Below are positions 2,742 to 61,625 of a stretch of DNA of 64,000 nt, piece by piece. The translations under genes were made by a program, and so were the position numbers. The notes below the pieces were generated by a model that worked only from the letters and a program-made list of their open reading frames with translations, was not told the origin of the DNA and did no database searches. Position 1 is the stretch's first letter. Every line of letters starts with the position of its first letter. The stretch is from the IMG/VR virus record IMGVR_UViG_3300025707_000003, positions 128,001 through 192,000 of that record; one strand, written 5' to 3'. This DNA comes from a virus. Lineage: Duplodnaviria; Caudoviricetes.

Positions 2742-3428
2742 ATGTCAATCCCCATACCAGCGGGTGCTACAAGAGTTCAAGTAGAAGATGAGTATGGTAA
2801 ACTAATTTGGCGAAAGCCCTCCGAAATCCTAGACACCGACACAATACGCATTAACTTTAAGACAGGCGAACCTTACGCTATGTTTGGTAAGCCAGGTCAA
2901 CCAAGTTCTAATAGTGCAAATGTCAAACAAACACCTGTAAATACACCTTATATACATCCATCAAACCCACAGGCAAACATCAATCAACTACAGCAACGCA
3001 AACAAGCGAAACTAAATAGCGATGCTGTATTTGATCAGACAAAGAAAAATGCCGATTCCTCTGAGGTATTGACTAATGTATTAGTTGGTTTAGCAGAAGA
3101 GTCTGCCTCACTTGCTTTTGAAAGAGAAGAAGCAGAGCGTAGGGGTGAATCCACATCTCAGATTTCTCTAAGGAGAGTAAATGCCTTAAAAGCTGTGGGT
3201 GACACTTGGATCAAGAAAAAAGAGATAATGTCGTCTAAATCCTTAGACTTAGAGTCTAAAGCTTTTAGGCAAGTTTTTGGACACATCGCTGAAACATTCC
3301 GTAAAGCGTGTGATGAAGCAGGGGTAAGACCCGAACTAGCAGAGAGTGTTTTTGCTACCTTCGGAAAGATGGTAGATGACCCAGATTGGATGCAAGACGC
3401 TAAAAAGGCTATGGAGCGTGAGAAATAA
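2742..3428 (+). CDS. hypothetical protein, candidate terminase small subunit
   Basis: Helical 228-aa ORF coupled (TAATG) directly upstream of TerL. The call is positional only. Confidence 0.4.
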   Translation: MSIPIPAGATRVQVEDEYGKLIWRKPSEILDTDTIRINFKTGEPYAMFGKPGQPSSNSANVKQTPVNTPYIHPSNPQANINQLQQRKQAKLNSDAVFDQTKKNADSSEVLTNVLVGLAEESASLAFEREEAERRGESTSQISLRRVNALKAVGDTWIKKKEIMSSKSLDLESKAFRQVFGHIAETFRKACDEAGVRPELAESVFATFGKMVDDPDWMQDAKKAMEREK

Positions 3429-6400
3429 TGAGTTTATCTTCGGTTGCGATCTCTGCAAGTGCTAGGGCAGGTAAGAAATCAGAAAAAGACGCAGACATCA
3501 TAGAATTTGTGGAAGCATCTTGGGGATTAAAGATGACTTTGTTTCCCGTACAAAGGGTAATCCTTAAAGCACATTATGGTCTTGAGCTTGATGATGAAAA
3601 GACATTTGAAATATCTGATTGGACTAGGACCAAAATAGAGACACATACCGAGAAATCATATCTTCGTAAGATATATGAAGATGGTCGTTGCAATATAGGT
3701 GAGGTAATACCTGGGAAACAACGAAGAGAAATGATCCTCTCTATTGGTCGTAGGTCTGGTAAATGTGTGACAGGTGAGACACTCATACCCACAAATAAAG
3801 GATTGGTTCGGATTGACTCTTTAGGTGATCCCAACGGGGATGAAATACAACCACTACAAGTTAATGTCGCACAAGAGTGTGGGACAACCTCTAGGTCGGC
3901 TTATTTTTATAACGGAGGTGTTAAACCTACTAAATACCTAGAGACATTCTGTGGGTACAGGATCGAGGGTACAGGAAATCATCGCATTAAAGTGATGACT
4001 CCCGAATGTAAGATCGAATGGAAGTATCTTGAAGAGATTGAAAATGGTGATGTGGCTTGCATCAATAGATCCAGTCAGCTTTGGTCTAATGACTATGTGG
4101 ATGTAAGTCAGCACCACACTGAAAAAGATCAACCTAAATATCTTGATGAAACTTGGGGAGAGTTATTAGGATTATTAGCAGGTGACGGTCACTGGACAAA
4201 TGAGAAAGCAGTTGGTATAACAGTAGGTGAGAAAGCCTTTGAGCCTTACCTTATGTCTTTATTTCGTAACCTCTTTGGGAAAGTCTCTTATCACCCAGAT
4301 AAGCGTAAGGTTGATGTCGGTCAAGTGTTAGCCTACGGGAAAGACCTAAGAAAGTTCCTCGATAACTTAGGTTGGGTAATCGACTGCACGACTAGAACTA
4401 AAAGTGTTCCACATACAGTCCTTAAATCCCCTATGTCTGTAGTATGTGCTTTCCTTAGAGGACTCTTTGAAACAGATGGTTCGGCTTATGACTCTGCCAT
4501 TACTCTTTCTACTGCTTCTTATCAACTCGCACATGAAGTACAACTTTTATTACTAAATGTCGGAATCGTATCCAATCTCTCTAAAAGCAACCGAGAAGAT
4601 AGAACAGAACATCGAATAAGAGTCAAAGGATCAAAGTCTAAGAGACTTTTCGCTAGACACATAGGGTTCATATCAGAAAGAAAGAAAAAGTGCCTTGAAG
4701 GGGTATTATCAACAGTCTCTTATAGGGGAGGTAATGAAGGAGTACCATTCTTTTACGAGTATGTTGAACGACTAAAGAAGTTCCACCCCTATCTCAAACA
4801 TGACTTAAGTCCTACAACTAAATACACACCCTATTGGAAGATCAAGAAGGTCGCAGACCATTCGGGTTTAAATCAGACCACAAAGTCTCAACTATATAAC
4901 CTCATCGACCGCGATTACTTTTTCGACCCTATCATCAAAGTAGAACAGCGTGAAGCTCATGTCTTTGATCTGAATGTGCCTAATGGATCAATGTTTATCG
5001 GCAATGGGTTCACTAACCATAATACTACGATTTCAGCCTGTATCGCCGCTTATGAAACCTACAAGTTGATCAAAAAAGAAAACCCACAAAAGTTTTATGG
5101 ACTACCCGCAAGTAATAATATCCAAATCATCTCGGTCGCCACAGATAAAGACCAAGCAGGTTTGCTTTACCAAGAAGTATCAGGTCATTATCGCTCCTGT
5201 GCTTTTTTTGGCCCCTACACTGCAAATAATACTCTCTCCTATGCCAGATTCCAAACACCAGCAGATGTAGAGAAGTATGGTAGATACATTGAGAACCAAG
5301 ACGCTAAAGCTACTCTTAAAATCACCTTTAGATCTTGTGTCGCTAAAGGTCTTCGTGGTGCAGGTAATATATGCGTCATTCTTGATGAGGTTGCTCACTT
5401 TACTGAAACGGGTCAATCGGGAGCAGAGGAAGTATATAACGCTGTTGTACCATCGACATCTGCTTATTCAGCTAAAGACCCAGAGAACCCAACGATCCCT
5501 ATTGGTGAAGTAGAGGGTCGTATCATTCTTATCTCTTCACCTTTGGGTAAACAAGGTCTGTTCTATAACCTCTTTATGATTGGTATGGGTGGTGGTCGGG
5601 CAGGAGATAATATCCTCGCTGTCCAAGCACCTACTTGGGAAGTAAATCCCACTGTACCTGCACAAGAGTTCGAGAAGCATTACCTCAAGAATGCGGCAGT
5701 CTTCTTCACAGAGTATGGTGGGGAGTTCACAGACAGAACAAGAGGGTGGATTACTGACGAGCGTGATCTATTATCTTGTATTGACCCTCAGTTAAAACCA
5801 CAAATGGGAGCACCAGCTAGAAAACCGCACTTTATGGGAATCGACTTGGGTCTTGTAGGTGACGGAACCGCAATTGCTATTGGACATCTCGAAGGTGAAG
5901 AAATCGTTGTAGATCTCGTAGCTCAAATTAAAGCAGGAGAGGGTATCTATCACGATAAAGAACGATTGGAGTTTGATGATGTCGCGGATTGGGTACTAGA
6001 GTTTACAAAGAAGTTTTATATTCAAGAGGGAATGTTTGACCAATGGGCAGGGATTCCTTTCCAACAGGCACTTGAAAAGCGAGGTCTAAAAAACCTCAAA
6101 TCTACTAATATGACTAAACAGATCACCTCACAAATGTATCAGAACTTTAAGGACATGATGTGGGATCAAAAGGTCAAACTCTACAATCGACCTAACTATG
6201 AAACAGAAGGACATGAACCGTATATCCAAGAACTCTTAGAGCTTCAACAAACGGTGCATGGTAAACACCTCATAACTGTCGAAGCTCCACAAACTAAAGG
6301 TAAACATGACGATATGTCGGACGCAATTGTACGCATGGCATGGCTCGCCTCTAATAACATCGGCAAAGGGCGATACTTCGCTTCAGGGTCTAAAGGAAGT

Positions 6401-6553
6401 AGACAATTCAGACACCCTATGGCAGGTGGTAAAACCTTTGCTACAGGTGGAAGGTATACAGGTCGAAGTGGGTCTGACGCTAAAAGGGTTGCACCTAAAT
6501 CACCTCGCTATAGCCTAAGAGACTCTATCAATGGTCGCTTTGGGAAAAAGTGA
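3428..6553 (+). CDS. terL: terminase large subunit, intein-containing
   Basis: Walker A GRRSGK|T interrupted by an intein, Walker B VILDE, motif III ISSP, and a C-terminal RNase H-like nuclease (MGIDLG...FDQW...HDDMSDA). Confidence 0.9.
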   Translation: MSLSSVAISASARAGKKSEKDADIIEFVEASWGLKMTLFPVQRVILKAHYGLELDDEKTFEISDWTRTKIETHTEKSYLRKIYEDGRCNIGEVIPGKQRREMILSIGRRSGKCVTGETLIPTNKGLVRIDSLGDPNGDEIQPLQVNVAQECGTTSRSAYFYNGGVKPTKYLETFCGYRIEGTGNHRIKVMTPECKIEWKYLEEIENGDVACINRSSQLWSNDYVDVSQHHTEKDQPKYLDETWGELLGLLAGDGHWTNEKAVGITVGEKAFEPYLMSLFRNLFGKVSYHPDKRKVDVGQVLAYGKDLRKFLDNLGWVIDCTTRTKSVPHTVLKSPMSVVCAFLRGLFETDGSAYDSAITLSTASYQLAHEVQLLLLNVGIVSNLSKSNREDRTEHRIRVKGSKSKRLFARHIGFISERKKKCLEGVLSTVSYRGGNEGVPFFYEYVERLKKFHPYLKHDLSPTTKYTPYWKIKKVADHSGLNQTTKSQLYNLIDRDYFFDPIIKVEQREAHVFDLNVPNGSMFIGNGFTNHNTTISACIAAYETYKLIKKENPQKFYGLPASNNIQIISVATDKDQAGLLYQEVSGHYRSCAFFGPYTANNTLSYARFQTPADVEKYGRYIENQDAKATLKITFRSCVAKGLRGAGNICVILDEVAHFTETGQSGAEEVYNAVVPSTSAYSAKDPENPTIPIGEVEGRIILISSPLGKQGLFYNLFMIGMGGGRAGDNILAVQAPTWEVNPTVPAQEFEKHYLKNAAVFFTEYGGEFTDRTRGWITDERDLLSCIDPQLKPQMGAPARKPHFMGIDLGLVGDGTAIAIGHLEGEEIVVDLVAQIKAGEGIYHDKERLEFDDVADWVLEFTKKFYIQEGMFDQWAGIPFQQALEKRGLKNLKSTNMTKQITSQMYQNFKDMMWDQKVKLYNRPNYETEGHEPYIQELLELQQTVHGKHLITVEAPQTKGKHDDMSDAIVRMAWLASNNIGKGRYFASGSKGSRQFRHPMAGGKTFATGGRYTGRSGSDAKRVAPKSPRYSLRDSINGRFGKK
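3764..5023 (+). mobile_element. intein with LAGLIDADG homing endonuclease (420 aa)
   Basis: Begins CVTGETLI, ends FTNHN, followed by Thr(+1). Two LAGLIDADG-like helices: LLGLLAGDG and FLRGLFETDG. Confidence 0.92.
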
Positions 6554-6562
6554 TTACAACGA

Positions 6563-6997
6563 TTAGTAGTTTTCTTGAGCCTCTTTACCCGCTTTGTACT
6601 CATAAAGCAGTTCACTTCGATCAGTCAAACCGACTTTCCATGTGTATTCTAAGTTATTTAAAGAAACACCATTCATGCCCATGTAGTAAACGATTTCTAT
6701 GATAGCTCCGTCCAAGTCTTTGATCATAGACTCTTGGTTGAGGTATCTTGAAAGTATCTCGATGTTAAGGATGAAATTTTCTTTATCTTCTTCCGAACCC
6801 TTTACCATTCTTTCCTTAGCAAAGTTTAAAAGTTGTTTGGTGTATGTATTGCGATGGTCAAGACCCAAGAAATAATCCTCGTGCTTACTCTCCATCATCT
6901 CTAAGAAATGTTTAGGGGTGAGTCTTGCAGACTGACGCTCTAAACGAGCAATCCTCATCTCAAGGTTTCTTATTATTTCTGAAGCTGATCTTTTCAT
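6563..6997 (-). CDS. leader-family protein (MKRSASEIIRNLEMRIARLERQSA) with unknown cargo
   Basis: True start is probably the ATG at 6997 (GGGGA RBS), not 7060. Leader matches the family consensus. Confidence 0.75.
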   Translation of the reverse strand: MKRSASEIIRNLEMRIARLERQSARLTPKHFLEMMESKHEDYFLGLDHRNTYTKQLLNFAKERMVKGSEEDKENFILNIEILSRYLNQESMIKDLDGAIIEIVYYMGMNGVSLNNLEYTWKVGLTDRSELLYEYKAGKEAQENY

Positions 6998-7025
6998 AAG
7001 AGTTTCCCCACTTTGTTTAATGTAA

Positions 7026-7056
7026 CACTTATTGACTATCATAAATAAACTACAAA
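7026..7056. repeat. 31-bp direct repeat, copy 1 (copy 2 at 7568..7598)
   Basis: CACTTATTGACTATCATAAATAAACTACAAA is identical upstream of two tandem leader genes. Confidence 0.9.
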
Positions 7057-7098
7057 TCAAATGGGGGGTGCATTTGATGATTGGTGGAAGTCTTAAGA

Positions 7099-7533
7099 CT
7101 ATTCGTTGCTTCTAATTCTTTTAAAGAAGTTAGGGTTCTTCATAATCAAGCTGGCGATCCCTGCTGACTCAATCTCAATTTGATAAGCCACGAGACCAGT
7201 ATCTCGTAAACTTCCACTCTCAACCTCGTAGTCAATGCGACAGTTGAATACAAAATAATCACCTCCACCCATCCAAGACAAATCAAAATCACCAGGCACT
7301 TTTCCTTTAGCTATAATCTGATCCATCATCTTATCTTTGCAGTAAGAGAAAATGGCTTGTAGATCATTTACACCCTTAACAGACTTTTTGAAGTCATCCT
7401 TCTCCATATCATGCTCTACAGATACAACACGAGCATTAAAGGATGAATCATTATCCCAACCTGCCGATTTGTTTTCAAGACGAGCAATACGACCCTCAAG
7501 GTTTCTAATCACTTCACTAGCTGATCTTCTCAT
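7099..7533 (-). CDS. leader-family protein (MRRSASEVIRNLEGRIARLENKSA) with unknown cargo
   Basis: Conserved leader, GGAGA RBS and upstream 13-mer motif. Confidence 0.8.
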   Translation of the reverse strand: MRRSASEVIRNLEGRIARLENKSAGWDNDSSFNARVVSVEHDMEKDDFKKSVKGVNDLQAIFSYCKDKMMDQIIAKGKVPGDFDLSWMGGGDYFVFNCRIDYEVESGSLRDTGLVAYQIEIESAGIASLIMKNPNFFKRIRSNE

Positions 7534-7580
7534 ATCATTTCTCCATTTGGTTTAGGGTTAAAGAGATCACTTATTGACTA

Positions 7581-7628
7581 TCATAAATAAACTACAAACT
7601 TTAGGGTTTGTGATGCAGATCTTCTCAT
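7581..7628 (-). pseudogene. truncated leader relic MRRSASQTLKFVVYL*
   Basis: ATGAGAAGATCTGCATCA with GGAGA RBS and the upstream motif intact. The frame runs into the next cassette's upstream motif and stops after 15 codons. Confidence 0.7.
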
Positions 7629-7645
7629 AATGGTTCTCCATTTGT

Positions 7646-7719
7646 TTAAGAATAAAGAGATCTCCTATGGATAACCTATAAATAAACTATCAATAGTTCT
7701 GGTTCTCCCAAGTCGCTGT
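7646..7719. repeat. 74-bp perfect direct repeat, copy 1 (copy 2 at 8825..8898)
   Basis: Identical 74 bp containing the last 10 codons (including the stop) of the 8869..10245 gene plus the 13-mer motif. Confidence 0.92.
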
Positions 7720-7786
7720 CTTGTATCGCAACCCCCCTAAAAACACAATCAATTCTAGATTCGGGAAAAAGTAGGAGGGGGGGGTA

Positions 7787-8806
7787 TTAACCTTGTGGTC
7801 TCCAAGACCTTATCTGTTGGTTTAACTTTGTTATTAGATCTTTGAAAACGCTTATACTTCTTTCTTTTTTACGCTGATGTATAGGGTCTGATGGTTGTCT
7901 CCTCTCTAACTCTTCGATCTCCTCATTTACTTTACGCTTAACATTTTTTAGACCCTCTGGAGATGTTTCTATTGGGTGTTCAAATGAACCATAACAAGAA
8001 ATTGTTTCCCTCCACCCATGTTGTATTCTATAACCATGCTTAAATAACTTACCATCTCTTCTTTTGGCATAAACTCCCCAACACATAGGGCAAGTACCTT
8101 TATTTTGTTCCTCTAAAGTCTGTTCGGGTTCGGTTTGCGGAGCGAGTCTTAAAAAGTCTTTTGCGTCTTCAACTGCACCCTCTTTGACTGCAAACTTTGT
8201 AATCTTAGTTAGATCAAAGTTCTCTAAATCTAGTTTGTAAGGTGAAATTTTTATCGCCACCTTTTTACCGTTTTTAGAAGTGGTTACTTTTTTGATACCA
8301 ACAAAAGCGTCCTCTAAATAAAACTTCCACCATTCTTTTCTTTTCTCATAAAACATACTGGTCAAAATAATCGAGATACGACCAAAAGTAGGTTTACTTG
8401 GTTTTCTATCTACAAAGTCTACATAGGGGATTGCTTTTTTAATCCTTTCAATCTCTTCTTCGTACTTTTGAAATGCCTCTTCAAATGTAGGGTATTCATC
8501 TACCGATACTAGTATAAAATAAATGCTTTGACCTAGCTTCTCAAAATCCTCAAAGGCAGTCTTGTGTTTGAGATTATCATTTGCATCCTGTGCCTCTTTC
8601 ATTTCAAAGTTAAAGCCTAAAGCTTCAAGCACCTCTTGTAAGATGTTAAAATTACCTTTTTTCGGCATTGGGGTTCTTCTTGAGTGGTTAGCCAAAGCTA
8701 ACATCATACTTTTAGCTTCATTGCTCAATGAAGATGTAGCTTGTTTTTCAAGACGGGCAACTCTCATCTCAAGCTCTCTGATGACTTCACTTGCTGTTCT
8801 TCTCAT
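7787..8806 (-). CDS. leader-family protein (MRRTASEVIRELEMRVARLEKQA) with C-terminal Zn-ribbon-like cargo
   Basis: Conserved leader; CPMCWG...KHGY...CYGS motif. Confidence 0.75.
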   Translation of the reverse strand: MRRTASEVIRELEMRVARLEKQATSSLSNEAKSMMLALANHSRRTPMPKKGNFNILQEVLEALGFNFEMKEAQDANDNLKHKTAFEDFEKLGQSIYFILVSVDEYPTFEEAFQKYEEEIERIKKAIPYVDFVDRKPSKPTFGRISIILTSMFYEKRKEWWKFYLEDAFVGIKKVTTSKNGKKVAIKISPYKLDLENFDLTKITKFAVKEGAVEDAKDFLRLAPQTEPEQTLEEQNKGTCPMCWGVYAKRRDGKLFKHGYRIQHGWRETISCYGSFEHPIETSPEGLKNVKRKVNEEIEELERRQPSDPIHQRKKERSISVFKDLITKLNQQIRSWRPQG

Positions 8807-8824
8807 AGGTCATTCTCCTGTGGG

Positions 8825-8898
8825 TTAAGAATAAAGAGATCTCCTATGGATAACCTATAAATAAACTATCAATAGTTCTGGTTCTCCCAAGTCGCTGT
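8825..8898. repeat. 74-bp direct repeat, copy 2
   Basis: Identical to 7646..7719. Confidence 0.92.
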
Positions 8899-10245
8899 AC
8901 GACCACGCTTCTCCAACGCATCAGATACCGTAGCCTTATCAGAGTCCATAGGGTAAGCACTGTCGGGTGTAACAGGATAAACAGCATCTGCTCTAGCTGT
9001 GTAGGTATCTCTCTGTGGCCAGTAACCATAACGAGTCTCAGGCCATGACACAGGAACTCCCTCAATAGGGAATCTATATCGTATGTCACCACTATCCAAA
9101 TACGCTATGTTGAAATGCTGTTGAAGAACATTACCTCTGTTCGATGGCATATTAACAGCACCACATGAATACCGTTCATTATTAGGTTTAACTATAAAGT
9201 CTTTCTGACTCACAATAGGACTAGGGCCGATCCACACCTCGTAGGAATGTTCCTTACGCCTACCACGATCTTCTTGACTAATCCTACGCTCACTGTCATT
9301 AGGGCCGACTATGATGTCATAAGGTCCATCATAACCTCCCTTAATACCTGTGCCGAAACAAATCGTACAAAGACTGTCTGGTTGCTTCGCATATTTAAGG
9401 GTCTCTTTATTGAAGGAGGTACAATAACAAGGTATCCCTGCTATCCTACGAGTAAATAACTTAACCCGTTCCCCCCCTTGTTCAAGTATCCAGTTATTAC
9501 GCCTTATCCCTTCTCTCCACATATAATCTACACGCTCAAGCTCTCTATCTGAGAAGGGCTTGCAATGCTCTAAAGGGGTTTCATGTAATACGCTTGTTTT
9601 TGGGTCTTCTGCTACTGTCGCTATACGATAGAAATCACGCTTATCTGTACCAAGTCTTAAGCGACTCTCTGGGTCATAAGCAATATAACTTATAGTGACC
9701 ACCGTATTGTCATCTATCGAAGGAGGTAAGCTATCTTCGGTTAAAGTGATGGCATCGGGTTTGGGTCTACCTGTAAAGAATAAAGTAACCTCACCAAACT
9801 CACCAAGCACTCTCGATGTGGGTACGATAACACCGTTAATCATTACCACAACATCTCTTGGTGAATCAGCAGGGTCATTGATGCTATTTTGTCTCGCTAT
9901 CGGGTACTCCACTTGAAACCGATAAGGATCTTCACCTTGATCCCCTTTAGAAATCCACTTGTCTGCTGGGATGACTTCATCATTAACTGCCCATGTGTCT
10001 ATTCGATCTCTGTATATTGTTCCACCGATAGGTGTGATGTTCACCCTACGATAAGGGCCACGATCAGAGTTGCCCGATCTGTATATGTTCACACCACGAA
10101 CAATCCAACCCTCATTTCCATGTAGGATTGATGGGTTATCCCAATGGACATCTATCTCACCCTTAGCGAAAGGGGAGACAGCACTCGTATTTCTTGGTGG
10201 TACAGGCCAAGGACTTCTACTGTCGTACCAACCATGTTGTGCCAT
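8869..10245 (-). CDS. putative virion structural protein (neck/head-completion-like, N-terminal beta-sandwich)
   Basis: FN3-like N-terminus (VHWDNP...GVNIYRS). The C-terminal GERVKLFTRR..PCYC...CTICFGTGIKGGY pattern is recalled from large-phage neck proteins and not verified. Confidence 0.45.
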   Translation of the reverse strand: MAQHGWYDSRSPWPVPPRNTSAVSPFAKGEIDVHWDNPSILHGNEGWIVRGVNIYRSGNSDRGPYRRVNITPIGGTIYRDRIDTWAVNDEVIPADKWISKGDQGEDPYRFQVEYPIARQNSINDPADSPRDVVVMINGVIVPTSRVLGEFGEVTLFFTGRPKPDAITLTEDSLPPSIDDNTVVTISYIAYDPESRLRLGTDKRDFYRIATVAEDPKTSVLHETPLEHCKPFSDRELERVDYMWREGIRRNNWILEQGGERVKLFTRRIAGIPCYCTSFNKETLKYAKQPDSLCTICFGTGIKGGYDGPYDIIVGPNDSERRISQEDRGRRKEHSYEVWIGPSPIVSQKDFIVKPNNERYSCGAVNMPSNRGNVLQQHFNIAYLDSGDIRYRFPIEGVPVSWPETRYGYWPQRDTYTARADAVYPVTPDSAYPMDSDKATVSDALEKRGRTATWENQNY

Positions 10246-10315
10246 AATAATCTCCCATGTAAGCGATATTTACTTATAGGGAGATTATAAATGACTTATT
10301 ATTCTCTCACTTCAA

Positions 10316-10834
10316 TTAATCATCGCCCTCAAAAGTGATCTCTACCTTTTCTTCTCCACCCTCGTCCTCCGCATCTTGTTTGGGGTCTATCCATTGTTTG
10401 ACGACACCTTTGAGTTTCACTTGCTCTTCAGTCGTAGTTTTAATAACTTTCTCTCCATGAAAAAGAGAAAGTTTGTCAATGACTGCGGATTGAAGCTCAA
10501 ATATTTGTTCTCTTAAAAGTTGCATCTGTATTTGTGCATCTCTCAACCTAGCGATTAATGCTTCCCTATCCCCATTAGCAGACGCAAGTTTATCTTTGAG
10601 TTCTTCTACTTCGGAAGGGTCTCTACCACTAGCGATGGCTAACATAGATGAGATACTGCCTGTGAGCATACCTATGATCCCAATAAGTATATCTCTGTTT
10701 TTCTCTACTATTTCATGCTTCGCTAAGAACCATATCAAACCTATGATCAAGAGCATGAAGACTACAGAAGCCCACCAACCTCTTTTCGCCTTTTCAGATT
10801 GAGTGAACTGTTTATTTGTTTGTTTTTTAGACAT
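10316..10834 (-). CDS. two-TM membrane protein with cytoplasmic coiled coil
   Basis: Two hydrophobic segments (aa ~20-38 and ~49-68) followed by a heptad-rich region. Confidence 0.65.
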   Translation of the reverse strand: MSKKQTNKQFTQSEKAKRGWWASVVFMLLIIGLIWFLAKHEIVEKNRDILIGIIGMLTGSISSMLAIASGRDPSEVEELKDKLASANGDREALIARLRDAQIQMQLLREQIFELQSAVIDKLSLFHGEKVIKTTTEEQVKLKGVVKQWIDPKQDAEDEGGEEKVEITFEGDD

Positions 10835-10843
10835 CGTAAAACC

Positions 10844-11686
10844 CTAGAACAGATTCTTAAAGAACTCTGAAATGAAAGAAATGAATGCGTCATACTTGGG
10901 CATATGGTAAGGAAGTCCGATCAGAGATCTTGCAACAGGTCTTGTAGATAGTTGAAAAATAATATGAAGCCAGAACAAACACGCTATAAACCCAGCCCTC
11001 CAAAAGACATAGAGAACCCAGTCTTTCAAGACTCTATCTCTTGCTCTTTTCTTAATGTATTTAGGCCCACCTAGTCTTTTTACTTTCTCAGATCCTAGAG
11101 GAGGCTGTAGCGATTCAATGGTTTCACCAACCGCATATATTTCTTGTGGTTCTTTCACCCCTTTAAATTTATACATACCTACACAAGCAAATCGGGTGCT
11201 TTTTGGTGTGTGCATATTCGTTCTGTTTCGAGTGGCTAACATTGCCTCCTTTGTGAGGAGAACTTGACCTTTTTGACAAAGAGACATTGTTCTAGCGGCA
11301 ATGTTTTTTGAGAGTCCTTCAAGTTCGACTCTCTTAGCTCCAGCTCCAACATAGACATCATCTTGTTCTACTTCAATGATTTTACCCCAGTGTATACCGA
11401 TACGAGTATTGATCTTTATTTTTGGTGGGATTGTTTTTTGATAAGCGAGAGCAAAGTTAACTGCATCTACAGGTCGGTCAAAAGACAATAGAAAACCATC
11501 AGAACGATCTATCTCTCTGCCTTCATGCCGATAAACAAGATTTCTAGCCATACGATCATGGATTTGAAACCACTGAGCCGCCACCTTAGCTCCCACCCTT
11601 TGAACGAAAGCAGTAGACCCTATCAAATCTAAGAGAACGATAGCTAAGTATCGTTCTTTCATAGTAATATCATGATCAAAGGGCAT
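10844..11686 (-). CDS. class III nucleotidyl (adenylate/guanylate-type) cyclase with C-terminal TM segment
   Basis: AIVLLDLIGST (metal Asp1), DRSDGF (Asp2), RIGIHWG, KNIAAR (catalytic Asn/Arg) and GQVLLT. Confidence 0.85.
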   Translation of the reverse strand: MPFDHDITMKERYLAIVLLDLIGSTAFVQRVGAKVAAQWFQIHDRMARNLVYRHEGREIDRSDGFLLSFDRPVDAVNFALAYQKTIPPKIKINTRIGIHWGKIIEVEQDDVYVGAGAKRVELEGLSKNIAARTMSLCQKGQVLLTKEAMLATRNRTNMHTPKSTRFACVGMYKFKGVKEPQEIYAVGETIESLQPPLGSEKVKRLGGPKYIKKRARDRVLKDWVLYVFWRAGFIACLFWLHIIFQLSTRPVARSLIGLPYHMPKYDAFISFISEFFKNLF

Positions 11687-12666: not shown

Positions 12667-13893
12667 ATGGCTAAAGCCAAATCTAAAGCATCTAAATCTT
12701 CAAAAGTGAAGTCTGCCCTAAAAGGGGTTGATCTCGCAAGTGTCCTCAACGATGCTGAAAAGGGCATGAAAGACTCGGCTCTTGTAGAGCTTGATCTTGA
12801 TTCTCTCTCTAATTCTATGCCCCACATCAGTACAGGATCTGTCGCCCTTGACTACCTCATTGGGGGCAAAGAAAATGCTCAAGGTGTTCGTCCTTGTCCT
12901 GGTATTCCAAGAGGTCGTATAACAAATGTTTATGGTTTGGCTGGTGCAGGTAAAACCACGATTGCTTTACAGACAGCGGCCTCCGTATGTAATGACGAAG
13001 GAGGGACTTGTGTCTATATTGACTGGGAGAATGAGGTTGAACCTAGATACGCTCAAATGCTCGGTGTTCCTGTTACAGATAAGTCTAAGTTCATGCTTCT
13101 CCAACCAGAAACTTTGGAGCAAGGGTTCAAACTCATGGTTAAGTTCGCATCGGCAGGTGTAGATCTTATCGTGGTTGACTCTGTAGGTGCAGGCGTTCCC
13201 GAAAAGATGTTTGCTAAAGAAGCAGGAGAACAAGCCGCAGTTGGTCTTTTGGCTCGTCAATGGTCGCAATTCCTACCCCTGTTCAAGCGTGTTATCGCAG
13301 ATGCTAATACAGGCGTTATCGGTATCTCTCAGTTGCGAGAAGCGATTGGTGGTATGGGTGGATTTGGATCTGGACCTCAGAGAAAACCACAAGGTGGTCA
13401 AGCGTGGAAGTATTATTCATCTCTACAGATTATGCTTCGTGTGGTCGGCAAAGATCGTGGTAAAGAATGGGATGGTCTACAGAACAAGATGATCGAAACT
13501 GTTAAAGGAAATATCGTTCGTGCTACACTCGATAAATGTAAAGTTTCTGACGCTTACAAACACGAGTGTCAGTTTTACCTTATGAATGGGATCGGTGTAG
13601 ACAATGAGCGTACAGTGTTAGACCTTGCGATTTCTGTTGGAGTCGTTAAGAAGGGTGGTGCTTGGTATACATGGGCTGATCCAACCACAGGTAGTGAACA
13701 TAAGGGTCAAGGTCTTGATGGCTTCCGAAAGTTGCTTCCCGATAGTTGGCTAGATTCCATGTTCAATCAAGTTCGTGGTTACCTCACCTCTAAGAAAAAC
13801 GAAGAAGAACCCGAAATGAAGGAAGAGGTATCTAGCAATCTCGGTGAGGATGGTCAAAAAGCTATGGACGAACTTGACGATCTCTTTAAGTAG
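12667..13893 (+). CDS. recA: RecA/UvsX recombinase
   Basis: ISTGSVALD, Walker A GLAGAGKTT, Walker B VVDSV, ISQLR, GGQAWKYYSS, KKGGAWY. Confidence 0.95.
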   Translation: MAKAKSKASKSSKVKSALKGVDLASVLNDAEKGMKDSALVELDLDSLSNSMPHISTGSVALDYLIGGKENAQGVRPCPGIPRGRITNVYGLAGAGKTTIALQTAASVCNDEGGTCVYIDWENEVEPRYAQMLGVPVTDKSKFMLLQPETLEQGFKLMVKFASAGVDLIVVDSVGAGVPEKMFAKEAGEQAAVGLLARQWSQFLPLFKRVIADANTGVIGISQLREAIGGMGGFGSGPQRKPQGGQAWKYYSSLQIMLRVVGKDRGKEWDGLQNKMIETVKGNIVRATLDKCKVSDAYKHECQFYLMNGIGVDNERTVLDLAISVGVVKKGGAWYTWADPTTGSEHKGQGLDGFRKLLPDSWLDSMFNQVRGYLTSKKNEEEPEMKEEVSSNLGEDGQKAMDELDDLFK

Positions 13894-14886: not shown

Positions 14887-15861
14887 ATGGGTGAACCGAA
14901 CACCGAAGTATTGGACGATCCCATGAGAAACATATACTGGTCGCACTTAAAAATGATGAGAGCTTGCCCTCAACAATACCTATGGCATAAAGGGCATCCA
15001 GATCACGATCTTGGAGCAGGGAAAGGTAAAAGAAAACCCTTACCCGATGAGTCAAAGGACTCTGAACACCATCAACTTATGGGTACTGTGTTATCCACTG
15101 TGGTTGAAGAAGTCTACGATCATGAACTGTATCGAGATCCTAAAACGATACAGACAAAGATTAAGGACATTGTAGACCAAGCGTTTACCAAAGCAGAGCA
15201 ACGCCATTATGTAATCTGGTCATATATGACTAGAGAAGAAGCGATGGACATCTGCCAAAGAGGTGCTCAGAACTTTCTTGAGATTTTGAAAGAGCATAGA
15301 TTTCTCGGTCCTTACGCTAAGTCCGAGTTGCGTATGACCCCTGCGATGAACAAATACTTTAATGTCTGTGGTATTGCCGACCTCGTATATAGAGATAAAG
15401 AAGGCAAAGTTCATCTTCTTGACGGGAAGAACGCTTCCACTCCGATGAAATATGAGGATGAAGATCAGTTAAGATGGTATGCTCTCTGTTTTAGATTACA
15501 GTATGGGAAAGTACCCGACAGGTTAGGGTTCTTTTATTTTAGGTATCCTAGATCAAACCCCCCTGAAAAACACTTTGCAGATAAAGACGCAGAATGGACT
15601 GGGTTCGTGGAAGTGAAGATCACCGAAGATGATATAAGAAGATTAGGGAAAGAAGCGATAGAGACTAATCGTGCTATCCATAGAGGTGTCTTTGAGCCTA
15701 ACCCTATTCCGAAGCATTGTACTTGGTGTAAGTTCGAGAACATTTGTGAACCTAGACAAGCACAGAAGAAGCGTAATGCGGCGAAGCGTGGTATGGGTAA
15801 AACAAAAACACCCGACCCAACGGAACAAGGTGGTGGGGTTATCAACCTTGATATGAAATGA
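14887..15861 (+). CDS. Cas4/RecB-like PD-(D/E)xK exonuclease with Fe-S Cys motif
   Basis: N-terminal ACP, GIAD...LDGKN catalytic motif, QLRWY, and C-terminal HCTWCKFENIC. Confidence 0.8.
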   Translation: MGEPNTEVLDDPMRNIYWSHLKMMRACPQQYLWHKGHPDHDLGAGKGKRKPLPDESKDSEHHQLMGTVLSTVVEEVYDHELYRDPKTIQTKIKDIVDQAFTKAEQRHYVIWSYMTREEAMDICQRGAQNFLEILKEHRFLGPYAKSELRMTPAMNKYFNVCGIADLVYRDKEGKVHLLDGKNASTPMKYEDEDQLRWYALCFRLQYGKVPDRLGFFYFRYPRSNPPEKHFADKDAEWTGFVEVKITEDDIRRLGKEAIETNRAIHRGVFEPNPIPKHCTWCKFENICEPRQAQKKRNAAKRGMGKTKTPDPTEQGGGVINLDMK

Positions 15862-15909
15862 ATCATATAAAAGAGGTATCACAAACACACCACTCAAAGG
15901 AGAGTTCAA

Positions 15910-16173
15910 ATGGATCTTGAACAACTGGTTAATAAAAAAATCGACATTGAAAGACGAAGGGAGCGTTTGCTAGGTAAACTAGAAGTCGCTAAGTCAAGTC
16001 TTTTAGAGCTTGATAAGAGGTTAGTCGAAAGGGGTATTAACCCCGACACTCTTGAAGAAGAAATAAATCGCCTTAAAGCTGAAAGGCAAGAGGCAATCAC
16101 TAAACTTAATGAAGCTCTGTTGGATGCAGAGCAAGTCATCACACGCATTGAAAGTCGAGTAGACGGTATATGA
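15910..16173 (+). CDS. small coiled-coil protein
   Basis: Heptad-rich 87 aa with GGAG RBS. Confidence 0.6.
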   Translation: MDLEQLVNKKIDIERRRERLLGKLEVAKSSLLELDKRLVERGINPDTLEEEINRLKAERQEAITKLNEALLDAEQVITRIESRVDGI

Positions 16174-17375
16174 AAATCACAGTATCAGCACAAGATTTAA
16201 AGGAAACTCTCTCAATCGCCCAAAACACATTGGGTGCAAACCAAGACATCACCTCACACTTTATCTTCACCATTGAGAATGCTGGAGTGAGCGTTATGGC
16301 TTGTTCTCCCCCTCGTCAGTTTTCAAAGATCCCTGTCATCGGTGCTACTGTTCAAGACGGAGGTTCTTTTTCTATTGAGGGGAAGCGTTTAATCTCAGCA
16401 ACTAATGTTATGACAGGTGTTGTAGAGATTGAGTATAATGAGGAGGATAAAGAAGTTTCGTTAAAAGGTAGTGAGGGAGAAGCAACTACAATCTCGCTCG
16501 ACCCAGAGTCCTTTCCCCCTTGGGTTGAAAAGTTCGGTCAAGCAACTAAAGTAGGAGAGATTTCTGCTTCCATTCTATATGATACGCTCAATACCAATAG
16601 ACAGTATGTATCACAAGATGATAGTCGTAGACCAGAGCTTGCTATGATCTTGATTGAAGACGGAAAAGCCATTGCCTGTGATGGATTCATGCTTAATATG
16701 TCTCGACATGATGATCTTCAAGGAATGAATGTGAAGGTTCACTATAAGGACATTACACCATTGATGAAGTTCCTCAAGGCGTATGATGGAGGTATGATTG
16801 AGGTTCTTAGTGGAGGACAAGCTACCTTCTTTAAGGCTGAGGACAGTGCTTTATTTGCTGTGATGGACTTGCCATATACTTACCCTCCCATCACACAGCA
16901 ATATGCTGATGCCTTTAACTGGACTCCTCGTAGGGTTTGGATGTTGTCTAAGGAAAACTTTATGAATGGTCTTACCTTCTTATCAGCCTTTGCTGATAAG
17001 ACTAACTTTAAGGTTTCTTTTAAAGACCCAGAAGATGAGGCTTTATTACCTCCAAGTCTTGAGATGAAGTCGTCTAATAGTAAGACTATTTCGTACAATC
17101 TTGAAGTGCCTCTTTTTGAGGACGCTGAGAAGCCACTAGAAGAGATCACAGACCTCTCTCACTTGATGTATGCTACTCGCCTTAAAGAAAAAGGTAAAGG
17201 TGATGACATCGCCACTTTCGATTTTAACTATCTTTCGGTCAAAAAAGCAGTGGAAATATATAATGATAACATCGTCTTTGGATGTTCTCAAGAGGGCAAT
17301 AAAGGTTATATGCTCTTTAAGTCAGACCAAGACTCTGGTGTACAGACTGTTTCTATTATAGGTTGGATGCTTTAA
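16170..17375 (+). CDS. dnaN: DNA polymerase sliding clamp (beta-clamp-like)
   Basis: 401 aa; MKITVS..DLKETL start and YVSQDDSRRPELAMILIEDGKAIACDG resemble the DnaN domain II motif. Confidence 0.65.
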   Translation: MKITVSAQDLKETLSIAQNTLGANQDITSHFIFTIENAGVSVMACSPPRQFSKIPVIGATVQDGGSFSIEGKRLISATNVMTGVVEIEYNEEDKEVSLKGSEGEATTISLDPESFPPWVEKFGQATKVGEISASILYDTLNTNRQYVSQDDSRRPELAMILIEDGKAIACDGFMLNMSRHDDLQGMNVKVHYKDITPLMKFLKAYDGGMIEVLSGGQATFFKAEDSALFAVMDLPYTYPPITQQYADAFNWTPRRVWMLSKENFMNGLTFLSAFADKTNFKVSFKDPEDEALLPPSLEMKSSNSKTISYNLEVPLFEDAEKPLEEITDLSHLMYATRLKEKGKGDDIATFDFNYLSVKKAVEIYNDNIVFGCSQEGNKGYMLFKSDQDSGVQTVSIIGWML

Positions 17376-60764: not shown

Positions 60765-61625
60765 CTAATCATTGGTTTCACACAAGCCCCACCTAAAACA
60801 ACCGATTTCATCTCTTCCTAGTTGTTCATCTGTGAAAAGTTCTTGTAATCCGTCTTGTTTCCCTTTAGCCCAAGATACCGCTTGCCTTATGTTTCCTTTC
60901 TTGAAGAAAGTGGCTTGACTCCCTCGCTCCTCAGATACTCTCTTCTCTAAGTTCTCTAAGTAGTCTATACGATCTGGATCTATTCTAGCCATATTACGAA
61001 TGTCTGCTTTATTGGAGTATATACAAGGCCAACATCCAACTCTACTAGAACCCTTTAGATATAGAGGGTTTGGAGAAACACCGTTTTTCTGATGAATGTA
61101 AATCACATCTTCTTCTGACCATTCTAAAATAGGTCTGATTTGTGTCGCTTCGTCTTGCTCCTCTACATATCCAAAAGTAGATCTTCTGATCGACTCCCCT
61201 CTTCTAATACCTGTGATGTTAATGGGGAACTTTCGGTTCTTTAAGAAAACCTCCACTGCGTAAGTTCGATAACTTACAAGTTTAAGCTCATTAGTACACC
61301 ATTTTAAGCGTCCATTCGGGAACATTTTTTTCTGTAATACAGCACTCTCCATACCATAAGCATGATCTTGGTAGTTGAGTTTTTCATTTTGAAGTTTGAC
61401 TACTTCAACCCCCAAAATATCACTAAGGGTATCTACATACTTATATGTCAAAGGGTGTTCCCACCCAGTGTCGCAAAACACTGGAGTGAAAGGTATGTTA
61501 TGTGTTTTTAACAACAACCCGACTGCTGTAGAGTCTTTTCCCCCACTACAACTTAAGATTAGAGGTCGATCTGTTTCTTTTAAGAATGCTATCGTTTCTT
61601 TTTCAGTGTTTAGTTCTAATGTCAT
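60765..61625 (-). CDS. PAPS reductase-family (PP-loop) protein
   Basis: SCSGGKDS, DTGWEHP, GIRRGESIRR, RPILEWS and SRVGCWPC. Confidence 0.85.
   Translation of the reverse strand: MTLELNTEKETIAFLKETDRPLILSCSGGKDSTAVGLLLKTHNIPFTPVFCDTGWEHPLTYKYVDTLSDILGVEVVKLQNEKLNYQDHAYGMESAVLQKKMFPNGRLKWCTNELKLVSYRTYAVEVFLKNRKFPINITGIRRGESIRRSTFGYVEEQDEATQIRPILEWSEEDVIYIHQKNGVSPNPLYLKGSSRVGCWPCIYSNKADIRNMARIDPDRIDYLENLEKRVSEERGSQATFFKKGNIRQAVSWAKGKQDGLQELFTDEQLGRDEIGCFRWGLCETND

Follow-up and report, generated by a model that had tools for sequence, protein, structure and literature searches.

Small genes that are exchanged together with their own promoters are known from the hyperplastic regions of T4-type phages, where promoter-early stem-loop (PeSL) cassettes and mini-circles have been described (Arbiol et al. 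2010, PMC2839356; Comeau et al. 2014, PMC4122927), with crossovers mapping between the promoter and the ribosome site or the ATG (PMC2839356). The locus considered here lies in a viral stretch of 64,000 nucleotides (nt) (Duplodnaviria; Caudoviricetes; positions 128,001 to 192,000 of the IMG/VR record IMGVR_UViG_3300025707_000003), the whole of which is called the window. It is the slot between a conserved gene encoding a protein of 458 amino acids (aa) and the large terminase gene, and it holds three leader-bearing genes (cassettes A, B and C) and a dead leader relic, together with direct repeats of 74 and 31 bp. A usual cassette is composed of a promoter motif, a conserved untranslated region (UTR), a ribosome site, a leader of about 21 aa and an unrelated cargo. 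As in the PeSL system, small orphan genes are bordered by short intergenic repeats that carry promoter motifs, such genes have been inserted, deleted or replaced between close relatives, with crossovers between the promoter and the Shine-Dalgarno sequence or ATG, and the process appears to employ only the general recombination machinery of the phage, without an integrase. Whole-slot joints out of register and scars of both flanking genes, as found here, are not described in these PeSL papers (PMC2839356, PMC4122927). Furthermore, the cassettes lack the stem-loop or terminator part, their motif is phage-specific and not a sigma-70 early promoter, the shared module runs into the coding region as a leader peptide, and both the host and the phage group are different, this being an uncultured huge marine phage.

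Other systems offer partial parallels. The internal-protein loci of T-even phages with their capsid targeting sequence, reportedly described by Repoila and colleagues in 1994, likewise have a conserved short N-terminal peptide on unrelated, fast-changing small proteins at a locus polymorphic between relatives, but the cassettes of the window occupy several slots, each with its own promoter-like motif. Morons of lambdoid phages, which Juhala and colleagues and Hendrix and colleagues are said to have described in 2000, are autonomous units with their own promoter; the present units, which have a promoter-like motif, are likewise placed between genes that are adjacent in relatives (the slot is empty, at 4, 10 and 26 nt, in the related loci L006, L034 and L003/L033). 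Morons differ from the present units in that no terminator was found in the window (scan of 6400-10400 and folding of A's flank) and in that these units share a header and leader and form stacked arrays with scars. Integron cassettes resemble the locus in that single-gene units, each exchangeable, are arrayed at one site, whereas the window shows no adjacent integrase, attC structure or fixed crossover point, and has a promoter-like motif for each cassette. Homology-facilitated illegitimate recombination, reportedly described by de Vries and Wackernagel in 2002 for bacterial natural transformation, is similar in having one anchored side (in this case the 458-aa gene and the header) and, on the other, an illegitimate joint that brings in foreign DNA. 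Its setting is bacterial transformation, while the setting here would be phage co-infection, and the joint in the window lies upstream of the anchor's end, so that this end is duplicated.

Repeats and gene-end scars in the slot

The array carries displaced ends of both genes that flank it. Comparable scars in relatives come from alleles of other lineages, the content of the slot turns over between close relatives, and cassette B is found in two different slots. Taken together, these observations make it probable that the array arose by general, misaligned recombination between co-infecting relatives, combined with crossovers in the shared header, and not by a site-specific system. The features of the slot, in their order on the minus strand and with positions in the window, are as follows.

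8869..10245, minus strand: conserved 458-aa gene (open reading frame, ORF; 83 related loci), left flank of the slot
8825..8898, minus strand: native copy of the 74-bp repeat, made of the 458-aa gene end (8869-8898), the promoter-like motif (8857-8868) and the UTR block of cassette A (8825-8856)
7787..8806, minus strand: cassette A, 339 aa, with N-terminal leader MRRTASEVIRELEMRVARLEK (ORF and leader comparison)
7736..7774, plus strand: scar of a terminase 3′ end in the 3′ flank of A; 7748-7774 reads INSRFGKK plus stop; 27-38 nt of a foreign allele
7646..7719, minus strand: displaced copy of the 74-bp repeat, made of the 458-aa gene-end scar (7690-7719), the promoter motif (7678-7689) and the UTR block (7646-7677)
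7581..7628, minus strand: dead leader relic, a 15-codon ORF with intact ribosome site and start and about eight leader codons (MRRSASQT), reading into the next promoter block
7568..7598, minus strand: 31-bp promoter block before cassette B, left copy of the repeat of the 542-bp unit
7099..7533, minus strand: cassette B, a 144-aa leader protein; with its 46-nt 3′ flank (7053-7098), the unit found in another slot in locus L090
7026..7056, minus strand: 31-bp promoter block before cassette C (exact-repeat comparison)
6563..6997, minus strand: cassette C, a 144-aa leader protein starting MKRSAS..., the one cargo in common with a close relative, L001 (99% amino-acid identity)
3428..6553, plus strand: gene of the large terminase, which contains a LAGLIDADG intein; it converges on the 458-aa gene and flanks the slot on the right

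The two copies of the longer repeat are identical over exactly 74 bp (7646-7719 and 8825-8898), and the exact match extends on neither side. In a scan for near-exact repeats the same pair appears as 86 nt at 95% identity with a spacing of 1,179 bp, and it is the longest near-exact direct repeat of the window. The shorter repeat is identical over 31 bp (7026-7056 and 7568-7598), with a spacing of 542 bp. An earlier reading of this DNA, made from the sequence alone, had reported both identities, the bracketing of the leader gene at 7787-8806 and the presence of the final codons of the 458-aa gene (…TATWENQNY*) together with a motif in the 74-bp repeat, all of which direct comparison reproduces exactly. 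Read on the minus strand, the 74-mer consists of the final 30 nt of the 458-aa gene, stop codon included, and 44 nt of promoter-like motif and 5′ UTR, the motif TAGTTTATTTAT beginning right behind the stop codon. Its right edge falls between the UTR block and the ribosome site, and its outer edge lies inside the 458-aa coding sequence.

Along the minus strand the 458-aa gene is followed by a header, cassette A, a 67-nt flank, the displaced 74-mer, the relic, B and C, and the stop codon of the convergent terminase lies nine bases beyond cassette C. The repeated motif stands ahead of A, the relic, B and C. The headers before B and C are of a second type and have the same start in both. With at most one mismatch allowed for it, TAGTTTATTTAT has 7 matches against 0.69 expected; TAGTNNNTTTAT has 12 against 0.75. 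The displaced 74-mer is followed only by a leader start without cargo, as had been noted, namely an intact ribosome site and the ORF MRRSASQTLKFVVYL* (7628-7581), but the leader part of this ORF had been set too short: it extends over about eight codons (MRRSASQT, matching the header and leader of the L036 cassette) and not six.

In addition to the displaced 458-aa gene end, the 67-nt flank behind A holds a piece resembling the end of a terminase gene, in the orientation of the terminase. Its reading INSRFGKK plus stop is the C-terminus of the terminase alleles of L006, L036 and L004, although other codons are used. The local alignment score is 38, compared with 15 ± 3 for shuffled sequences (maximum 30 in 500), and the similarity covers about 38 nt. 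The internal joint thus reads terminase end, 16 nt, 458-aa gene end, whereas an empty site has these ends in the opposite order; such a joint would be expected if two whole slots had been joined head to tail.

In L004 and L007, which come from two separate metagenomes, the 458-aa gene end has left two more scars. Scar 2 comprises 72 nt followed by the promoter core and has four differences from the resident gene end, all at synonymous third positions, a pattern that random changes would give with P = 0.002. Scar 3 lies directly at the stop codon of a reverse gene and has the codons AGG-ACT, as in the functional alleles of L042, L036 and L034, where the resident gene has CGT-ACA. The synonymous-only differences and the AGG-ACT codons indicate that these scars derive from other functional alleles, and therefore from exchange between lineages and not from local duplication and decay. 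In this light, the 74-bp repeat of the window is best read as a real scar of misaligned joining between the slots of related phages, which we hold to be likely from the sequence comparisons.

In regard to the reality of the repeat, the window is metagenomic, and a repeat of this small size could form a node of an assembly graph, at which strain variants might be wrongly joined. However, contigs L086 and L087, from two different JGI metagenomes, both carry the two 74-mers at the spacing of 1,179 bp, and over 3.9 kb their identity to the window is 99.97-100%. In the public collection the exact protein occurs in 111 blocks for A, 106 for B and 91 for the 458-aa protein, and the gene neighbours are identical in all 23-24 contigs read per exact protein. 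Moreover, the joint between the flank of A and the 458-aa gene end is novel sequence, which an assembly graph could not invent, and the three-copy structure of L004 and L007 agrees across separate metagenomes. An artefact, the possibility that the sequence-only reading had named as fatal to it, is therefore refuted unless all these assemblies share reads, and we give it practically no credence. The exact joint of the A flank and the scar was not found in the viral contig collection.

Turnover of the slot among relatives

Searching with the 458-aa protein gave 83 loci. Slot length, taken from the stop codon of the 458-aa gene to that of the terminase, was tabulated for the clade with at least 90% protein identity:

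L006: 4 nt, empty (flanking stop codons 4 nt apart)
L034: 10 nt, empty
L003/L033: 26 nt, empty
L036: 387 nt, one cassette
L005/L035: 469 nt, another cassette, different from that of L036
L001/L002/L032: 510 nt, C only
L071: 885 nt, two cassettes
L039: 1,342 nt, two cassettes
Window: 2,315 nt, with A, relic, B and C
L004/L007: 4,095 nt, with a leaderless pentapeptide-repeat gene, a 311-aa leader gene and a reverse 647-aa HATPase-like gene

Among relatives that are 79-94% identical in the 458-aa gene, the slot thus ranges from 4 to 4,095 nt and contains 0-3 cassettes, with at least 13 unrelated leader-tagged cargoes across the slots. L004 and L006 share 94% identity in the 458-aa gene, yet their slots measure 4,095 and 4 nt, and the window and L001, at 92.9% identity, have C alone in common. 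On the tree of the 458-aa gene, content differs in every lineage more than about 6% apart and agrees only in pairs that are 99.9-100% identical and come from different samples. The gap that separates the terminase from the 458-aa gene is a hypervariable slot in which small autonomous cassettes are housed. Turnover of the locus with swapping of cargo, which had been proposed together with a comparison of relatives as its check, is borne out by this range of lengths and by the lack of any shared cargo apart from C, which the window and L001 have in common. The slot of L003, listed as empty, holds a suggestive trace of what may be a promoter remnant.

A second variable slot lies between a 172-aa gene and the 458-aa gene (L003:1440-1660; L004:6330-6775; L006:1385-1820; L090:182-714). 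It is empty in the window and in L005, while L004 and L006 have a leader cassette of 125 aa there. In L090 a B unit with 82% identity stands directly behind the 172-aa homologue, and the contig ends before any 458-aa gene; the similarity corresponds exactly to the 542-bp unit, beginning at the promoter block and stopping short of the following one. The second slot of L003 has a dead leader relic of its own, MRRTASE followed by a stop, with the header intact. In addition, the header of L001 is a hybrid that combines a slot-proximal promoter and UTR with the ribosome-site part specific to C.

According to the sequence-only reading, recombination takes place in the segment of motif, ribosome-binding site and leader. 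Header crossovers are indeed indicated by the edge of the 74-mer, the hybrid header of L001 and the borders of the B unit. Recombination is not confined to this segment, as the outer edge of the 74-mer lies in 458-aa coding sequence, and the terminase-end scar and the two scars of L004/L007 also fall outside it.

Formation of the array and competing routes

In the mechanism that we favour, the array of A, relic, B and C would have been built by general recombination between relatives with different contents in one slot. Pairing would occur in the conserved flanks or in the shared header, and an illegitimate joint would then fuse the two molecules out of register. One parent would have been cut about 38 nt or more inside the 3′ end of its terminase gene, downstream of A, and the other 30 nt ahead of the 458-aa stop codon, so that the slots become tandem and the terminase-end and 458-aa-end scars are left back to back. 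The 74-bp identity would then consist of the 458-aa gene end together with the stretch of header that both parents had in common. Smaller steps could use the header as homology, which would account for the 31-bp blocks around B, the hybrid header of L001 and the move of B between slots. The relic would be the remnant of a cassette that lost its body when an illegitimate deletion set in at about leader codon 8. Co-infection is the presumed setting of these exchanges. For the homologous steps, the likely enzyme would be the RecA/UvsX-like protein encoded at 12667..13893 on the plus strand (PF00154, E 7e-41; phrog_97, UvsX-like, E 3e-62); this gene and one for a PD-(D/E)XK exonuclease both lie within 8 kb.

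The 74-bp repeats may now be able to delete or circularise the 1,179-bp unit. RecA-mediated removal of this unit had been predicted before, and it is plausible in view of the phage's own RecA/UvsX-like gene, but the loss itself was not observed, all contigs read having kept A. This belongs with several points that weigh against misaligned joining as the full account. Neither a variant without A nor an excised circle was seen, the arrangement being kept in all 23-24 contigs read, including 24 with the exact 458-aa protein, which leaves ongoing shrinkage hypothetical. The terminase scar shares about 74% identity with the resident end, compared with 74 of 74 positions for the copies of the 74-mer, and one simple event between uniformly diverged parents does not explain both scars. 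To account for the mismatch in scar age, one would have to assume mosaic parents, gene conversion between the repeats at a later time, or an older scar travelling with A. No microhomology is visible at the joint ATACAAG|ACAGCG. Since every outgroup has a different content, the order of events, whether gain or loss, cannot be set.

Three other routes deserve consideration, and the one closest to known phage biology is the mini-circle route of the T4-type PeSL model, in which recombination between headers excises a circular cassette whose Campbell-type re-entry elsewhere duplicates the homology. Re-entry by a single crossover in the header or in the 458-aa gene end would give the 74-bp and 31-bp repeats. 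Each pair of direct repeats does bracket exactly one cassette (the units of 1,179 and 542 bp), the borders of the repeats fall in the interval from promoter to ribosome site to which PeSL crossovers have been mapped (PMC2839356), and B is found in two slots with the borders of its unit at the promoter block. As the product is the same as that of an unequal crossover, the sequence does not separate the two. However, a circle carrying 30 nt of the 458-aa gene end and the terminase scar needs an earlier illegitimate joint, and the lengths of the scars vary between events (30, 72 and at least 27 nt). Such circles could thus have acted in a second step and not as the origin of the scars, and as an explanation of the array we consider them rather unlikely. 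A homing-endonuclease hot spot appears slightly less probable still. Here, intein-encoded LAGLIDADG endonucleases would break the terminase gene of co-infecting relatives that lack the intein, and in the repair from the other genome long and at times faulty conversion tracts would shuffle the neighbouring slot. It is true that the terminase adjoining the slot carries such an intein. The terminases of L006 and L007, lineages that share the Ser allele encoded by the terminase-end scar, also have a second insertion of about 320 aa with a Cys start and a LAGLIDADG-like motif (L006:3255-7340, minus strand), at a site equivalent to window positions 5194-5197, 1.4 kb from the slot, and absent in the window, L001 and L005. 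From its sequence this insertion is probably a second intein, and it could be a source of breaks. Yet breaks of this kind could explain frequent recombination and not the geometry of the scars, and the slot between the 172-aa and 458-aa genes, as well as leader loci far from the intein, vary too.

A site-specific, integron-like cassette system, with the motif as the attachment site of a recombinase, would fit the facts that a repeated motif heads every cassette and that cassettes are gained, lost and moved. Close relatives also have a 491-aa ORF with a borderline match to tyrosine recombinases (PF00589, 25 bits against a cut-off of 27.1 bits), located 55-60 kb away (L092, G002:62279-62695; L093, G001:181435-181833). 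What speaks against it is that the borders of the repeats are not at fixed positions of the motif (74, 31, 72+16 and at least 27 nt), that the scars include coding DNA from both flanking genes, that the window has no match to the integrase-like 491-aa ORF of the relatives, and that each cassette has its own promoter-like motif and no attC-like structure (fold of the A flank, z 0.31). On these grounds this system is highly improbable, and general recombination between relatives is preferred.

If the favoured mechanism holds, the locus offers a sequence-level record of how accessory genes are gained, stacked and lost in uncultured huge phages. It would contain homologous joints in the shared header and illegitimate joints inside the flanking genes, with different lineages as the partners, and the shuffling of promoter cassettes seen in T4-type coliphages would be extended to a different group, that of very large marine phages, in which the module also encodes a leader peptide. 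More tentatively, and as a possibility for which we would claim far less, huge marine phages might possess an integrase-free cassette platform, in which a header of about 125 bases serves both as expression and addressing module and as portable homology, that is, an "integron" for virion-delivered, injected effectors running on RecA/UvsX-type recombination. In such a platform any ORF could be inserted, stacked with others, shifted from slot to slot and handed on among co-infecting lineages, the set of virion-delivered proteins would change fast, and scars of the flanking genes would record the concatenation of whole slots.

Leader cassettes and neighbouring genes

Seven genes of the window, A, B, C and four more, start with a leader resembling MRRSASEIIRNLExRVARLEK. 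Its codons vary synonymously among the copies (Ser TCA or AGT, Arg AGA or CGT), from which it follows that the leader is conserved as a peptide and not as DNA. Once the leaders are stripped, only one related pair exists among 18 leader proteins from this slot and the window. This is reminiscent of the internal proteins of T4, in which anti-restriction cargoes are diverse and the targeting sequence alone is conserved (Rao and Black 2010, PMC3012670). By analogy, the leader may address its cargo to the virion, in agreement with the "targeting" role assumed for the header in the sequence-only reading. If it is such an address tag, the slots would renew the set of proteins that the phage delivers, and the 458-aa/terminase slot could serve as a metagenome marker for this turnover.

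The cargoes had no match in Pfam or PHROG, except for an unnamed PHROG on the C-terminal third of A, and a DNA search of phage records gave a single weak match of 161 nt to an uncultured phage of 485 kb. Relatives of A were found by protein search, and a pattern scan of the viral contig collection gave none. The nearest homologue of A, with 61% identity, is in the same slot in L084, while remoter ones are located behind an IMPDH gene or, in genome G004, some 60 kb away from the homologue of the 458-aa gene. A search for both cargoes in four large records of relatives gave nothing for B and, for A, no more than a relative of 32% identity, well away from the 458-aa homologue. The distant relative L085 (1680-3052) has two tandem A-like genes after its IMPDH gene, and the headers in front of them, about 60 nt long, are almost the same. 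From another sample, a contig of 661 bp (L089:168-569) matches the relic-plus-B region of the window; its B has an in-frame deletion of 33 nt that removes RIARLENKSAG from the leader, flanked by GGT microhomology, although coverage is low and the deletion may be an error.

Several other origins were tried and rejected for these elements. Simple tandem duplication of A followed by decay is ruled out, as the displaced 74-mer is followed by a ribosome site and a leader that are L036-like and not of the A type. The relic cannot come from homologous exchange between leaders, which would leave an intact leader. Likewise, the 30 coding nt are not part of the promoter, given that other copies of the promoter have unrelated upstream sequence and that scar 3 of L004 has no promoter behind it. 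Between 6400 and 10400, terminator-like or sigma-70-like sites were not found above chance, and the fold of the 3′ flank of A (z 0.31) showed no structure above that of shuffled sequences, leaving a terminator or stem-loop unsupported there.

The 458-aa protein matched no Pfam or PHROG family, and its clusters in the atlas are viral hypothetical proteins. Upstream of its gene and on the same strand is a gene similar to adenylate/guanylate cyclases (10844-11686, minus strand). In L042 (7374-13371) the 458-aa gene is followed by a 210-aa gene and then by reversed homologues of the window genes at 14887-17375, with no terminase behind it, an arrangement which indicates a larger rearrangement at the downstream junction of the 458-aa gene. 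Elsewhere in the window, a PAPS-reductase-like gene (60765-61625, minus strand) is located between leader cassettes, and a different repeated motif, similar to TATAAATAAGGGGTTAC, is present in at least 8 copies between 23244 and 42118, in the middle of the window, which is richer in G+C; it may represent another class of promoter.

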